A program made the position numbers and the translations under genes. This document shows, piece by piece, positions 39,613 to 52,184 of a stretch of 64,000 nucleotides of DNA. Every line of letters starts with the position of its first letter. Position 1 is the stretch's first letter. Origin of the DNA: Candidatus Helarchaeota archaeon (GTDB lineage Archaea > Asgardarchaeota > Lokiarchaeia > Helarchaeales > RDOG01); contig JAHPZH010000002.1 of the NCBI GenBank assembly GCA_019058315.1, positions 224,001 through 288,000 on the forward strand, in the 5' to 3' direction. A model generated the notes under the pieces. It worked only from the letters and a program-made list of their open reading frames with translations, was not told the origin of the DNA and ran no database searches.

Positions 39613-40188
39613 TTGAAAATGCAAACAAAGAAAAAAAAAGTTTTTAAAATTGTAGTATTGGGAGAAGCTGGAGTAGGAAAAACCAGTTTAGTTAGGAGAT
39701 ATTGCGAGGGGACTTTCCTAGAAGGATATAAAACTACAATTGGCAGCGATTTTTATGTAAAATATCTTCGTTGTGAGGATGGAAGTCCCTTAATTCTTTC
39801 AATTTGGGATTTAGCGGGAGAACATCGTTTTCAGTTTGTAATGGAGAATTTTATGAAAGGTGCAAAAGGAGCACTCCTTGTTTTTGATCTAACAAAAAAA
39901 AGAACATTCATAAAATTAGGTGAATGGTTACAAATATTACAAAAAGCAGCTGGATCAGTACCTTTGATTCTAATAGGCAATAAATCAGATTTGATTGATT
40001 CACGTTTTGTTTCTGCTGATGAAGCTAAGGCATATGCTGAAAATAATGGAATTGCTTATTATGAAAGCTCAGCTAAAACAAGCTGGAATGTTGATAATAT
40101 CTTTCAAAAAATATCAAATTTATGTTTAAATAAAGAAGCAACTGAAGTTGTTGAATACAAAGAAGAAGCAAGGCGAATAGACTTATGA
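39613..40188 (+). CDS. Rab-like small GTPase
   Basis: FKIVVLGEAGVGKTS, TIGSDF, WDLAG, GNKSD, ESSAK. Confidence 0.9.
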   Translation: MKMQTKKKKVFKIVVLGEAGVGKTSLVRRYCEGTFLEGYKTTIGSDFYVKYLRCEDGSPLILSIWDLAGEHRFQFVMENFMKGAKGALLVFDLTKKRTFIKLGEWLQILQKAAGSVPLILIGNKSDLIDSRFVSADEAKAYAENNGIAYYESSAKTSWNVDNIFQKISNLCLNKEATEVVEYKEEARRIDL

Positions 40189-43920: not shown

Positions 43921-44006
43921 TTATGTATTCCTGAAAAATAGGAAATTAGACACCATAATTCCTGAGAAAACTCCTTTATACAATTCTATTTTGTTATTAG
44001 ATTCAA
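43921..44006 (-). pseudogene. Frameshifted, truncated 5' remnant of an array gene
   Basis: TTG AAT CTA junction as in members B and A, then KIELYKGVFSG in a shifted frame ending at TAA. Confidence 0.7.
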
Positions 44007-44632
44007 ATTCCGGATTTAAGAGTTATATTATATACATGTTTCGCTTCCATTTCCATTATATATAAGTCAGTTTTTCCCATGGTACCCCGGAACAATGTAC
44101 CTTCAATTAATAATTTATCTCCGTTTTTTATGAATAGATATGAAATATGTGGTGTAAACACCAAAAATATATTTGGAATTCCTTCAATTTCTAGATCTAA
44201 TTTAATGCTAAATACAAAGTTAACTTTACGCATACCAATATATTTTAGATCTGAAGTTGCAGTTCCTGAAAGTTTACCCTTAAAAACTTCTTTTTTCTTA
44301 ATTTTTAAACCTAATCCATTTTTAAGTGTTCGATTATAAATATAATTAGCTTTCATAAATATATTTTCGATTTGTTCTTTACCCCTGAAGTACTGGTTTA
44401 ATGTACCTCCAATTGTTACAATATCTCCTTTTCTTAAGAGAAATGGTTTGACACGACCTGCATTCCTATCAAAATTTGATGAATATTTAACAAAAAATTC
44501 CTTTGGAAGCCCTTCAATCTCTTCATTTAATCTAATAGTAAAACTATAAGCATAAGGATCAATAATTACCAAATCTGAAGTAACTGTTCCAGATAATACT
44601 CCTTTAAATAGCTGTTTTTCTCGGATTTTTAA
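44003..44632 (-). CDS. OB-fold-like array member E (two domains); the position homologous to D's TTG start reads TTA, so possibly a pseudogene
   Basis: Frame extends upstream of track start 44572 as LKIREKQLFKGVLSGTVTSD, matching member D's N-terminus. Confidence 0.7.
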   Translation of the reverse strand, partial: LKIREKQLFKGVLSGTVTSDLVIIDPYAYSFTIRLNEEIEGLPKEFFVKYSSNFDRNAGRVKPFLLRKGDIVTIGGTLNQYFRGKEQIENIFMKANYIYNRTLKNGLGLKIKKKEVFKGKLSGTATSDLKYIGMRKVNFVFSIKLDLEIEGIPNIFLVFTPHISYLFIKNGDKLLIEGTLFRGTMGKTDLYIMEMEAKHVYNITLKSGI

Positions 44633-44867: not shown

Positions 44868-46172
44868 TCACCAAATACTAATATGTTCCTGACATATTGG
44901 ACATTTCTGAGAGTGCTTTACATATTCTTTCCAACAACATTTATGAAAAATTCTTTTACAATGTGTGCACCTTATTTGACATTCAAATTCCCCTTGAACT
45001 CCGGGAATTGTTCCTGATACATTTTTTTGACAATAAGGACAGACTAAATTCTTACAAATACTGCATACAAATTGAGAGGTATCTGCCATACTATCTCTTA
45101 ATTTATTAAAAAATTCAGCTAAATTAGAGGCAGGAAACCATTCTATAATGAAATCATTAATTGCAGTCTGAAATTTTTCTGAAAGTTGTTGATCTTGGGG
45201 TAAAGTTACTAGGTTTATGGCTGGGGGGGAAGAAGGGTAGTTATTTGGAATTTGGATATCGAATTTGTATTTTTTAGGATTTGTTTTAGATTCTGTAAGA
45301 GAAACATGTATCATATTATTAACTGAATCAAAAATTGCATCCAAATCTTTTTGTTTTAAAAGTTTTAACTCTAAATTTATTCTTAATTTCCTATCTAAAA
45401 TTGCTGAAATTTCTCTTAGTATATGAACTACATGACTGCTACTTGGATTCCAAGATCTTATTGATTTTAAACTATCTAAAAAAATGAATTTTTCCATTTT
45501 TTGTGAAGGAATAATTTTTGGGAGTTGGGGAAACTCTTTCAAGTCAACTTCAAGGTCAAATTGTTCAGCATCCAAACTATAAATATGAATTTTTAATTTG
45601 GTTGATAATTCTGTGGGTTGTTCAACATCAAACTCCTGATAAAGACTTTGAACTTCTTCATCTAATCTTGATTTTCCCATAATTTCTTCTTCAATTGTTC
45701 GAAGAATTTCAACTAGATGAGCTGGAGGTTGTTGAGGAAAATTCTTAATTAAGGCAATTGAATCTGGTGGTCCGAGGAGCTCTATCAGTTCTTGAGGAAA
45801 TGAAATTTCAATTCGTTTTGGATAATCTTGGCATTTAAGTCCTACTGGATAATAAAAACCAATTGAAGAATAAAAATCCACTTTGATATCAGTAACATTT
45901 TCAGGATTTAATTCAACTTGAAAATTATCAATAACTGATTCTATCTCCTTTTTTAGAATTTTTTGCTGTTCTGACAAATCATTTTCTATCGAAGTAATTT
46001 GATTTGATATTTCTTTATTTCTATTTTCTATTTCTTCTATTTTAGCTGTATATTGAGATAAATTAATTTTTCCTGAATTGAAATCACTTTTCAATTCCAG
46101 GTTCTTTAATTTATTTTTCTCAATCTCCTCCTCTAATGTGAAGATTAAATCTAAAATTTTAAAAGAATTCAT
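44868..46172 (-). CDS. Coiled-coil + three UEV/RWD (inactive E2-like) repeats + C4HC3 RING-like finger; putative ubiquitin E3 ligase
   Basis: Three repeats with DYPKR/EFPQLP/NYPSSPP and terminal (W/F)xP...L helices; CPYC...CTHC..FH.CC...CPIC. Confidence 0.7.
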   Translation of the reverse strand: MNSFKILDLIFTLEEEIEKNKLKNLELKSDFNSGKINLSQYTAKIEEIENRNKEISNQITSIENDLSEQQKILKKEIESVIDNFQVELNPENVTDIKVDFYSSIGFYYPVGLKCQDYPKRIEISFPQELIELLGPPDSIALIKNFPQQPPAHLVEILRTIEEEIMGKSRLDEEVQSLYQEFDVEQPTELSTKLKIHIYSLDAEQFDLEVDLKEFPQLPKIIPSQKMEKFIFLDSLKSIRSWNPSSSHVVHILREISAILDRKLRINLELKLLKQKDLDAIFDSVNNMIHVSLTESKTNPKKYKFDIQIPNNYPSSPPAINLVTLPQDQQLSEKFQTAINDFIIEWFPASNLAEFFNKLRDSMADTSQFVCSICKNLVCPYCQKNVSGTIPGVQGEFECQIRCTHCKRIFHKCCWKEYVKHSQKCPICQEHISIW

Positions 46173-46219: not shown

Positions 46220-46501
46220 TTACGAAATTTTTTGCTCTCTTAATGCTTTTCCTAATGTTTTTCCCCACTTTTCCGCTAAGTCTGCCATTATACCATCTAT
46301 TGGGTCTTGAATTATATCATATCCCCTTAATTCTTCAAGAAAGTTCCATAATCGTAATTTAGTTGTTTTTTTTCGGAGATCTTTTCTCGGAAATCTCTTT
46401 AAAAAACCATCAATTTTGCCTTTAATTTCAGGATCTAATCCGGTCTTTTTACTTAATTCCATAAAATTTTGAATGATTGTACGCGAATTCATTTTGCTCA
46501 C
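46220..46501 (-). CDS. Hypothetical helical protein, translationally coupled to the roadblock gene
   Basis: 93-aa ORF; ATGA overlap at 46498-46501. Confidence 0.6.
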   Translation of the reverse strand: MSKMNSRTIIQNFMELSKKTGLDPEIKGKIDGFLKRFPRKDLRKKTTKLRLWNFLEELRGYDIIQDPIDGIMADLAEKWGKTLGKALREQKIS

Positions 46502-46947
46502 ATCGTAGGAATTTTTAAATCTGAAAAATCTACATCTTTTTTCATTGGTTGTTTTGGACTTAAAGGTAATTTAGCGATCTCTGCAGCTGCTTGATTTAAG
46601 GCTAAGAGAGTAATTCCTAAGGATGCACCAGCTGGCAAATTTACTAAAATCAGTGCACTGTCTCCTGCACTTTTGACAATCATTTGTCCATTTTCAGAAT
46701 CGATTAACATTTTGGATAAAGTTCCATGTTCATAAATATCTGTAGATCTTGTGGCTAAAGCAAGGATACTGGCTCCTAACCCAGCAGCCACAATTTCAGT
46801 CTCATTATCTAGGGGTTTATTTGTTTCTTTATCAAATGAAGTTATTGGGAGTCCATTTTTATCAATTATTACCGCAGATTTTATAGCAGTAGTCTCAAGC
46901 ATCTTCTTTAGGATATCATGCAGTTGAATCTCAATTTTTTTCGACAT
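46498..46947 (-). CDS. Roadblock/LC7 domain protein
   Basis: SAVIIDKNGLPI, AAGLGASIL, MLIDSENG.MIV..AG..A.IL, LG. Confidence 0.88.
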   Translation of the reverse strand: MSKKIEIQLHDILKKMLETTAIKSAVIIDKNGLPITSFDKETNKPLDNETEIVAAGLGASILALATRSTDIYEHGTLSKMLIDSENGQMIVKSAGDSALILVNLPAGASLGITLLALNQAAAEIAKLPLSPKQPMKKDVDFSDLKIPTM

Positions 46948-50516: not shown

Positions 50517-51344
50517 GTGGACAAGATTCTTCAAGAGTTTTGGATTGTTGAAAAAAAATCAGGAAGATGCATGTTTAATAAAAGTTATGCTAGTGTTTCG
50601 ACAGATCCAGACCTTTTGACAAGCTTTTTAAGTGCACTTTACCGATTCTCAGAGGAGGTATCTACAAAACAGCAAGGCATCGAAAGTGTTGAAATGGGGG
50701 GTTTAAAATGGGTCTATATCGATAAAGATAATCTATTATATATCGCAGCAGCAGATAAAACTGACAAAACTTCCAATCTTCGGTCTCAAGTAAATGTAAT
50801 TAGGATAAATTTTACAGACAAATTTCCAGAATGTAAGGATGATGAATTTAGTGAAAAATGGGATGGAAATATTACTAAATTCGAAGTATTTTCTGATAAA
50901 GTAGATGAATTAAAAGATCATTGGAAAAAACTTGAGAAAGTTACCGATGCGGCAGAAATGATGGATATTTTAGAGGTATATCAACATATATTTAATAGCT
51001 TATCTAAAATAATCCATACAATAAAAAAAGGTAGGGAACAACTTGATGAAAAGATGATACATTTAAAAGAGGTGTTACCAAAATCTTTTCAAAATGCTGT
51101 TTATTCAGATAGCGGATGGGATATCTTAACAATAAATGTCTTTCAACAAGATATTAATGAAGAAGAGCTTAGAACAAGTTTAATTTCTATGCTACAGTAT
51201 TATATAGATATTTTACGAGAAATATTTAAAGATAAAATGCCTGAAATAATAAGAACTCTTATATTTCCTTATATACGTTCTGATTGGAAGAGAATTTCAA
51301 ATTTAAAACTAGATAAGATGTTTATTGACCTATTTTTAACTTGA
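50517..51344 (+). CDS. Longin-like domain protein with helical C-terminal region
   Basis: SGRCMF..SY...DPDLLTSFLSALYRFSEE...IESVEMG..KWVY pattern typical of Asgard longin-like domains. Confidence 0.65.
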   Translation: MDKILQEFWIVEKKSGRCMFNKSYASVSTDPDLLTSFLSALYRFSEEVSTKQQGIESVEMGGLKWVYIDKDNLLYIAAADKTDKTSNLRSQVNVIRINFTDKFPECKDDEFSEKWDGNITKFEVFSDKVDELKDHWKKLEKVTDAAEMMDILEVYQHIFNSLSKIIHTIKKGREQLDEKMIHLKEVLPKSFQNAVYSDSGWDILTINVFQQDINEEELRTSLISMLQYYIDILREIFKDKMPEIIRTLIFPYIRSDWKRISNLKLDKMFIDLFLT

Positions 51345-51671: not shown

Positions 51672-52184
51672 TTATTGTTTATTAAGCAATGTAGCTGCAA
51701 GATCAGTAAATGCTTCAACAACTTTTATTCCATTTAAAGCACTAGTCTCGAAAAAAGGACAATTCATTTCTGAGGCTAAATCTGCCCCTTGATTACTATC
51801 AATTTTTCTTTTATCCTTTAAATCTACTTTATTTGCAAGTAAAATTTTAGGAACAGAACTAGCGTTTTTTAATAATTCTTCATGCCATCTAGAAATTGAA
51901 TTAAACGTTGTAGGTCTTGTAACATCATAAACCATAAGAGCGCCCTGTGCACCCTTATAATAGAGCTGACGAACTTCTGACCATTTCATTTGTCCAGCAA
52001 TATCATATAATAGTAACTTAATTTGAATATTTCCAATTTCAACTTCTTTAATTAGAATATTTGCACCCAAAGTTGGTTTATATTCTGTTTCAAACTTATG
52101 TTCTGAAAACCTTTTTATTAGCGATGTTTTCCCCACAGCTGGATCGCCAATCACAATAACTTTGAACACAAATTTTCTTGACAT
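51672..52184 (-). CDS. Rab-like small GTPase
   Basis: FKVIVIGDPAVGKTS, PTLG, DIAGQ, YYKGA, ANKVD, ETSA. Confidence 0.9.
   Translation of the reverse strand: MSRKFVFKVIVIGDPAVGKTSLIKRFSEHKFETEYKPTLGANILIKEVEIGNIQIKLLLYDIAGQMKWSEVRQLYYKGAQGALMVYDVTRPTTFNSISRWHEELLKNASSVPKILLANKVDLKDKRKIDSNQGADLASEMNCPFFETSALNGIKVVEAFTDLAATLLNKQ

Follow-up and report, generated by a model that had tools for sequence, protein, structure and literature searches.

An Asgard archaeal protein that joins three RWD-type domains to an Rbx1-like RING-H2 variant, a predicted ubiquitin ligase or adaptor

The stretch of DNA analysed here (the window) comprises 64,000 nucleotides (nt) of contig JAHPZH010000002.1, positions 224,001 to 288,000, from the Candidatus Helarchaeota archaeon assembly GCA_019058315.1, and is AT-rich (~30% G+C). 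The datasets listed as containing it were DNA metagenomes from sediment and soil, with no RNA dataset among them. On its reverse strand lies a gene, P0001, whose product of 434 amino acids (aa) is modelled as two N-terminal helices, three catalytically dead RWD-type domains and a C-terminal RING variant with three predicted zinc sites. We regard P0001 as probably a RING-type ubiquitin ligase (E3) or an adaptor of the Asgard ubiquitin system, built like the RWD-RING ligases of eukaryotes, because its nearest RING sequence relatives are active RING-H2 ligases (ARK2C, RNF165 and RBX1), because it has I372, P425 and I426 at RBX1-aligned positions in a genome with a complete ubiquitin system, and because its paralog P0011 sits in a ubiquitin operon and an Asgard cascade has been reconstituted (bioRxiv 10.1101/2023.07.25.550441). 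The analysis establishes the domain folds, the conservation of the zinc ligands, the distribution of the family and the gene order; binding of a ubiquitin-conjugating enzyme (E2), ligase activity, dimerisation and a complex with the operon partners are functions that we infer.

Gene and domain architecture

The gene and its parts, with the source of each assignment, are as follows.

44868..46172, - strand: P0001, whole gene, 434 aa; two N-terminal helices, three RWD domains and a RING
45975..46172, - strand: aa 1-66, two long helices (3-32, 38-64); DSSP on the AlphaFold2 (AF2) model
45675..45974, - strand: aa 67-166, RWD-like domain 1 (helix 68-83, four strands, DYPKR turn, closing helices); AF2 and hhalign
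45387..45674, - strand: aa 167-262, RWD-like domain 2 (helix 153-180 shared with domain 1, four strands, FPQLP turn); AF2
45075..45386, - strand: aa 263-366, RWD domain 3 (NYPSSPP turn; no HPN, no catalytic Cys); VIA-align, and Pfam RWD in relatives
44871..45074, - strand: aa 367-434, Rbx1-like RING-H2 variant with 12 conserved Cys/His positions and three predicted zinc sites

P0001 starts with ATG and is a real, conserved gene. Full-length relatives at 93, 81, 68 and 67% identity come from Asgard metagenome-assembled genomes (MAGs) labelled Promethearchaeota and Helarchaeota, a partial relative at 85% identity comes from a MAG labelled Hodarchaeota, and two more orthologs, P0012 and P0013, are each 32% identical to it. 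Public records name family members 'hypothetical protein', 'E2 variant' or, by automatic annotation, 'ubiquitin-protein ligase'. An earlier reading of this DNA, made by a model from the letters and translated open reading frames (the sequence-only reading), had described three repeats after a coiled coil, each with an E2-like starting helix, a proline turn and an aromatic-x-P helix, followed by a Cys-rich tail. The motifs it quoted were all located in the protein, namely the starting helices KKEIESV (residue 74), RLDEEVQSL (169) and RINLELKLL (264), the turns DYPKR (116), EFPQLP (213) and NYPSSPP (311), the aromatic-x-P helices NFPQQPPAHLVEIL (144), SWNPSSSHVVHIL (240) and EWFPASNLAEFF (344), and the Cys motifs CSIC (370), CPYC (378), CTHC (402) and CPIC (424). 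The catalytic HPN motif and Cys are absent from the repeats, as it had stated; there is no HPN, and the sole Cys before residue 370, C114, is unconserved.

The AF2 model of P0001 was built from 23 diverged relatives and had a mean predicted local distance difference test score (pLDDT) of 83.5. A unit of one helix, four strands and two helices occurs in it three times, with long helices (153-180 and 248-274) bridging adjacent units, and by AF2 secondary structure all three repeats have the topology of the RWD class (Pfam PF05773). Between strands 3 and 4 lies a turn of the (Y/F)PxxxP type, canonical in NYPSSPP at 311, where Y312, P313 and P317 are invariant in the family alignment, and variant in FPQLP at 214 and DYPKR at 116. 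By profile comparison, repeat 1 is homologous to repeat 2 (hhalign probability 92.6%, E 4.7e-7, 88 columns). Profile comparison gave no significant sequence similarity of repeat 3 to repeats 1 and 2, and its kinship to them is drawn from the matching modelled fold rather than from sequence.

Against solved structures, repeat 3 aligned in VIA-align at Z 10-11.4 over ~100-105 residues, with a root mean square deviation (rmsd) of 2.6-3.0 Å, to E2s, to the RWD domains of GCN2, RNF25 and the SEA complex, and to the Tsg101 UEV domain; the double RWD of CENP-O aligned to residues 153-360 and 178-360 (repeats 2-3) at Z 10.2-10.4. The Pfam RWD model exceeded its cut-off in the ortholog P0012 (25.9 bits) and in several relatives (24.8-36.7 bits), matches at E<=0.01 were obtained for 22 of 23 family members with RWD and for 21 of 23 with UQ_con, and single-RWD proteins of the repeat-1 type also matched UBC-like N-terminal domains. 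Given these structural matches and the RWD and UQ_con signals in relatives, the repeats are predicted to be catalytically dead domains of the UBC superfamily, of RWD type, in agreement with the earlier proposal that all three take the UBC fold.

The segment ahead of the repeats had been called a coiled coil from the sequence. Its long helices were recovered, and the AF2 model divides them into two (3-32 and 38-64); sub-threshold Pfam matches at the N-terminus were to Knl1_RWD_C and further coiled-coil families. The two helices could possibly form a coiled coil or a dimerisation stalk.

The zinc domain

Eleven zinc-ligand positions are invariant among the 23 diverged relatives (C370, C373, C378, C381, C398, C402, C405, H410, C413, C424 and C427), and a twelfth, position 412, is Cys in the close group of P0001 and His elsewhere. 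These 12 positions are enough for three zinc sites, and the C4HC3 finger with an extra CxxC that had been proposed from the letters was not borne out. Searched against the PDB, a profile made from 29 zinc domains matched the RING-H2 of ARK2C/RNF165 at E 2e-5 and RBX1 at E 3.6e-5, the RBX1 alignment spanning the domain from end to end. On our understanding of which RBX1 residues bind zinc, 11 of the 12 family positions coincide with RBX1 ligands, including the H-x-(H/C)-C signature and the four of the third site, with C378, C381, C398 and C/H412 aligned to RBX1 C53, C56, C68 and H82. The eight cross-brace ligands (C370, C373, C402/C405, H410, C413, C424 and C427) are invariant in the 23 sequences and aligned to RBX1 ligands.

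The resemblance to the three-zinc RING-H2 domains of cullin-RING ligases and APC/C (RBX1, RBX2 and APC11) has its limits, in that the family has a C-x2-C pair where RBX1 has C-x-H, the last ligand is Cys in P0001 and Asp in RBX1, and P0001 lacks the N-terminal cullin-binding strand of RBX1, its finger being fused directly after the third RWD. Residues I372, P425 and I426, kept in the clade of P0001, align with RBX1 I44, P95 and L96, which we take to be E2 contacts. Among Pfam zinc-finger models, zf-rbx1 was the best for the P0001 family.

Structural comparison led to the same class of domain. Foldseek and an exhaustive VIA-align comparison with 48,161 representative chains each gave nothing but RING and U-box domains among the 50 best matches of the zinc-domain model, the VIA-align Z being 7.0 for listerin (26% identity), 6.8 for TRIM37, 5.6-5.8 for SEA/GATOR2, 5.4 for RBX2 and 5.1 for the RING of FANCL (rmsd 1.8 Å). 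With RING-H2 and RBX1 also leading the profile search, the earlier identification of the tail as a RING held.

Likeness to eukaryotic multi-RWD proteins

When the model of P0001 was searched with Foldseek against the PDB, FANCL came first (7kzp_L, E 4.1e-9, 395 columns), with 9a0j_L, 3k1l and the DRWD fragment 3zqs as other FANCL chains, and the next matches were listerin/Ltn1 (9ofv_e and 8aaf_e, ranks 4 and 6), BRE (6gvw_C and 6h3c_C), Knl1, CENP-O and many E2s. FANCL, which consists of ELF, a double RWD and a RING (3k1l, 7kzp_L), shares with P0001 the order of three non-catalytic UBC-like folds and then a C-terminal RING. That part of the FANCL comparison made in the sequence-only reading stood, as did the likeness it had drawn to BRE/BABAM2; the C4HC3 RING it had supposed did not, since FANCL has a two-zinc, PHD-like RING of that kind and P0001 is predicted to have the three-zinc, Rbx1-like form. 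Whole-model template modelling (TM) scores were low (~0.2) and sequence identity to FANCL was 11-14%. The low TM-score reflects differing domain orientations, so that the match is one of fold and order rather than of overall shape, and on the model the likeness of P0001 to FANCL is a likeness of architecture and fold. Further differences from FANCL are the extra N-terminal helical stalk and the lack of a DNA-repair context.

The other eukaryotic counterparts each share a part of this plan. In listerin/Ltn1 and RNF25, as in P0001, an RWD is followed directly by the RING, and the junction of the third RWD and the RING in P0001 is no closer to FANCL than to listerin and RNF25; RNF25 and listerin have a single RWD each, which in listerin comes after a very long HEAT/ARM body, whereas P0001 has three RWDs and a third zinc site. 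BRE/BABAM2 (the scaffold of BRCA1-A/BRISC), CENP-O/P and Knl1 are built, like P0001, from tandem inactive UBC folds joined by long helices, and the kinetochore RWD proteins among them have a similar coiled-coil lead-in, but BRE/BABAM2 and the kinetochore double-RWD proteins lack the RING that P0001 carries. Pfam BRE (PF06113) was not among the matches listed for P0001 and was sub-threshold in the relatives P0014 and P0020.

Distribution and phylogeny of the family

A phmmer search of 1.84 billion cluster representatives gave 44 clusters at E<=1e-3, and a profile search of 5.8 billion proteins (word-filtered, with 8000 candidates scored) returned Asgard-named or unnamed records and no eukaryotic name. 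Across the phylum, 46 of 301 sampled genomes had a match, all 46 in the window's own class and mostly in one sister family (42 of 68 genomes). By these searches, the P0001 family appears confined to a single class of Asgard archaea.

Members from the sister family are longer (540-590 aa), with a fourth, N-terminal UBC-like domain followed by a low-complexity acidic linker of ~100 aa (L015-L033; for example L016:1474-3144, - strand). The N-terminal domain of the L016 member, the one member scanned alone, exceeded the Pfam UQ_con cut-off and, in alignment with PDB profiles, has Gln at the position of the E2 catalytic Cys. A quick tree separated clade A, which holds P0001 and its orthologs (Shimodaira-Hasegawa-like approximate likelihood ratio test, 98), from clade B, which holds the four-domain forms and a paralog from the genome of P0001. 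This paralog, P0011, is 421 aa long and 26% identical to P0001, with the same architecture and the same 12 ligand positions.

Ubiquitin context in the genome

The genome carries an E1, three canonical E2s, ubiquitin, small RINGs and a JAB protease, and a ubiquitin-ESCRT cluster on another contig combines E1, E2, ubiquitin, a small RING, a UEV protein, ESCRT-II and Vps4. The ubiquitin gene was placed at L013:6623-6868 (- strand), E1 genes at L013:4911-5927 and L012:9743-10972, and the three E2s at L013:6109-6579, L012:11237-11755 and G000:C2:154995-155471. Immediately downstream of P0011 come genes for an E1 (ThiF), an E2 and a JAB/MPN protein, and after these another ThiF gene, in opposite orientation, and a VWA-RING gene (L012:8359-15368, G000 contig C6, ~265.4-272.4 kb); P0027, the ortholog of P0011, also adjoins E1. 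The JAB/MPN protein of this cluster has a long C-terminal coiled-coil-like tail, and the combination of tandem UBC folds, MPN with coiled coil, and VWA recalls the parts list of BRISC and BRCA1-A (BRE, BRCC36/Abraxas and MERIT40).

An Asgard cascade of E1, E2 and small RING works in vitro (bioRxiv 10.1101/2023.07.25.550441), and a ubiquitin cascade with a RING has been reconstituted for Caldiarchaeum (PMC5654768). The small RING E3s of these operons are archaeal RING proteins that presumably share the same set of E1, E2 and ubiquitin with P0001; they are ~90 aa long with a single RING, to which P0001 adds three RWDs, the stalk, the third zinc site and the Roadblock operon described below.

Another protein of 312 aa (L010:679-1614, + strand, G000 contig C7) consists of a PCI domain (29.1 bits against a cut-off of 22) and then a canonical RING-H2 (zf-RING_2, 39 bits), a pairing that is unusual for a prokaryote.

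A three-gene unit with Roadblock and other neighbours

P0001 is the last gene of a three-gene unit, whose other members and further genes of the window are listed here.

46498..46947, - strand: Roadblock/LC7 protein, 149 aa, first gene of the unit (Pfam Robl_LC7 E 2.6e-10, 40.3 bits against a cut-off of 23)
46220..46492, - strand: 90-aa helical protein of no known family, middle gene (conserved position and family)
44003-44572, - strand: gene just downstream of P0001, 189 aa, two repeats, weak OB-fold signal
39613-40188 and 51672-52184: Ras-family GTPases
50517-51344: longin-like gene

The order of Roadblock, an 84-95-aa protein and the RWD3-RING protein was kept in all eight distinct loci compared (the window, L046, L047, L048, L053, L055, L057 and L058, with L054 and L056 repeating L053 and L055), with gaps of ~5-55 nt; in L058 the third gene runs into the contig end. 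L047 and L048 carry P0012 and P0013, and the genes flanking the unit vary between the eight loci. For the middle gene, a GTG start at 46501 (46223-46501, - strand) would give 93 aa and an overlap with the stop codon of the Roadblock gene; the ATG at 46492 is the start used in the database record and in all orthologs. Its family comprises ~20 clusters, every source name being Asgard; the protein gave no Pfam match at E<=1, no usable ESM Atlas match and only chance-level hits in the PDB profile search (E>=0.05). When P0001 was paired with the Roadblock and 90-aa proteins in a complex prediction, the score was 0.14 (mark, 0.32), a value that speaks neither for nor against binding.

The window also carries a V4R gene, RtcB, archease and UbiA, which, like its Ras-family GTPases and longin-like gene, are typical of Asgard archaea. 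RtcB and archease neighbour the P0001-type unit in most loci, with UbiA or PHP genes between them and the unit in several. At the orthologous loci, LplA or SCP2 genes take the place of the 189-aa gene downstream of P0001, and for this reason we place that gene outside the three-gene unit.

Elsewhere in the genome, a protein of 254 aa (L009:1114-1875, + strand, G000 contig C3, ~1.461 Mb) combines a longin-like domain with one RWD of the repeat-1 type. Its longin-like domain matches the window gene at 50517-51344 (BLASTP E 4e-15), and the same fusion is present in its orthologs P0053 (64% identity) and P0050 (47%). A Roadblock profile showed no similarity to its N-terminal domain (hhalign probability 0.3%), the domain being longin-like instead. 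The Asgard RWD family shows diversification, into proteins with three RWDs and a RING, four UBC-like folds and a RING, a zinc ribbon and three RWDs, and a longin domain and an RWD.

Further architectures containing the same RWD family were recorded. P0042 and P0043, of 341-348 aa and from other Asgard contigs, have an N-terminal zinc ribbon and repeated RWD-like units, with no C-terminal RING. A gene at L011:1270-2025 (- strand, G000 contig C9) encodes a coiled coil, one RWD and a TPR-like tail, and P0026 has a RING at both ends.

Proposed function and alternative explanations

For an E3 ligase or adaptor, we propose that the N-terminal helices would form a stalk, perhaps a dimerising one, that the three dead RWD domains, joined by long shared helices, would form a rigid arm binding substrate or partners, and that the RING with its third zinc site, as in Rbx1 and Apc11, would recruit a ubiquitin-charged E2. 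P0001 would be made together with the Roadblock/LC7 and 90-aa proteins and most likely acts with them, and the trio might possibly link ubiquitin-type modification to small-GTPase regulatory modules.

A number of observations weigh against this proposal. P0001 itself scored under the Pfam cut-offs for RWD (16.4 against 22.8 bits, with UQ_con at 16.9 bits) and for zf-rbx1 (PF12678; 18.8 bits, E 0.002, cut-off 31 bits), and its zinc region, in zinc-free models, reached a pLDDT of 53-77 in the full model and 75.9 when folded alone. RBX1 H77 has no counterpart in the family, which has an extra, shifted Cys three residues upstream instead; the invariant W414 adjoins C413, off the position of RBX1 W87; and the residue after the last Cys of the zinc domain is Gln and not the usual Arg linchpin. 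With H77 replaced, Trp displaced and Gln at the linchpin, RING activity could be weak or absent. The operon partners of P0001 are not ubiquitin-system enzymes, and tblastn (E<=1e-4, ~9-10 kb per side, ten genomes) found no E1, E2, JAB or VWA-RING near the sister-family relatives and, in two genomes of the window's order, just a small-RING relative nearby, so that only a subgroup of the paralog clade shows linkage to ubiquitin enzymes. The RING domains of GATOR2, finally, serve mainly as structural glue.

Several of these points suit a non-catalytic scaffold, in which the RWDs and the RING would only assemble a complex with the Roadblock and 90-aa proteins, with no ubiquitin transfer, in the manner of the tandem UEVs of BRE in BRISC or of the RING junctions of GATOR2/SEA. 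This is the principal alternative, and we consider it possible, if on balance unlikely. The RWD and RING parts have BRE and SEA/GATOR2 chains among their structural matches, and the Roadblock partner, the linchpin Gln, the displaced Trp and the longin-RWD fusion in the same genome are all consistent with it. It is opposed by the hydrophobic ridge of I372, P425 and I426 kept in the clade of P0001, by the position of the paralog P0011 beside E1, E2 and JAB, and by the active RING-H2 ligases ARK2C, RNF165 and RBX1 as the best profile matches.

The likeness to listerin raises the question of a quality-control ligase, which would use its RWD-RING end to bind a large particle, for example the ribosome, in the way of the C-terminal module of Ltn1. 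Listerin gave the best VIA-align match of the RING and the Foldseek ranks cited above, matched the P0001 model strongly over residues 177-415 and occupied rows 2-5 of an Atlas shape search with that model; Pfam UBC_like (PF23009), present in nearly all members of the Atlas listerin clusters, matched 13 of 23 P0001 family members; and RtcB and archease are neighbours in most loci. Nevertheless, the UBC_like matches were all under the cut-off, the ~1500-aa HEAT/ARM body is absent, P0001 at 434 aa having no solenoid in the AF2 model, and RtcB and archease lie outside the tight unit, with UbiA or PHP intervening in several loci. We therefore consider a listerin-like function improbable.

We consider it highly improbable that eukaryotic FANCL is truly orthologous to P0001 or descends directly from it, with P0001 acting in DNA-damage signalling, given the lack of a family-specific sequence signal, the differing zinc stoichiometry and the absence of a repair context. 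FANCL was the best full-length Foldseek match with the same domain order, its RING aligned at Z 5.1 (rmsd 1.8 Å), and FANCL_d1 came near its cut-off in two relatives, one of them P0020 (21.7 against 23.8 bits). No FANCL Pfam model, however, reached its cut-off in any member, the best in P0001 being FANCL_d2 at E 0.3, and FANCL_d1, d2, d3 and FANCL_C were not among the Pfam families common to members. The low identity and TM-score, the three predicted zinc sites as in RBX1 against two in FANCL, the neighbours Roadblock, RtcB, archease and UbiA in place of linked DNA-repair genes, and the confinement of the family to one Asgard class (46 of the 301 genomes) point the same way. The sequence-only reading had left open whether P0001 was a relative of such eukaryotic proteins or parallel to them, and the second wording is the better supported.

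We consider it very improbable that the tail is a PHD-type finger or another finger outside the RING class, one that would read a ligand without binding an E2, for although the spacing from C378 to C427 fits C4HC3 (C-x2-C, 20, C-x2-C-x4-H-x2-C, 10, C-x2-C) and the PHD chain 2puy was matched at E 0.027, that best PHD chain scored ~1000-fold worse than RING-H2 (2e-5) and RBX1 chains, the top 50 of both structural searches contained no PHD, and such a finger leaves the conserved C370, C373, C398 and C/H412 unexplained, for which the RBX1 alignment, using all 12 positions, accounts.

Implications

As far as we are aware, multi-domain RING ligases with RWD arms (FANCL, listerin, RNF25 and GATOR2 subunits) are regarded as eukaryotic inventions, and the RING protein of the archaeal ubiquitin systems hitherto described is tiny. 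In our literature search we found no description of a multi-RWD RING protein, of a FANCL- or listerin-like archaeal ligase, or of the Roadblock operon. Within the RWD-RING ligase architecture, the novelty of P0001 is its third zinc site, its three RWDs and its unusual operon. The family shows that some Asgard archaea already join several inactive E2 folds and an Rbx1-like RING with three predicted zinc sites in one polypeptide.

RWD domains have been proposed to radiate from an archaeal non-catalytic E2 during eukaryogenesis, and one Asgard RWD-like sequence was noted in the same study (Tromer et al. 2019, PMC6601020). The P0001 family offers a concrete starting point for testing this idea, and the strict Roadblock operon is a testable link between ubiquitin-like machinery and GTPase regulators. 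It is conceivable, and to us rather doubtful, that the Roadblock, 90-aa and triple-RWD RING proteins form an archaeal complex coupling a ubiquitin-type RING/RWD scaffold to small-GTPase regulation. If this were true, the trio would be a prokaryotic counterpart or forerunner of GATOR2/SEA with Ragulator-Rag, which combine RWD/RING with Roadblock/longin modules, and the longin-RWD fusion found in these genomes would connect the two domain worlds a second time.

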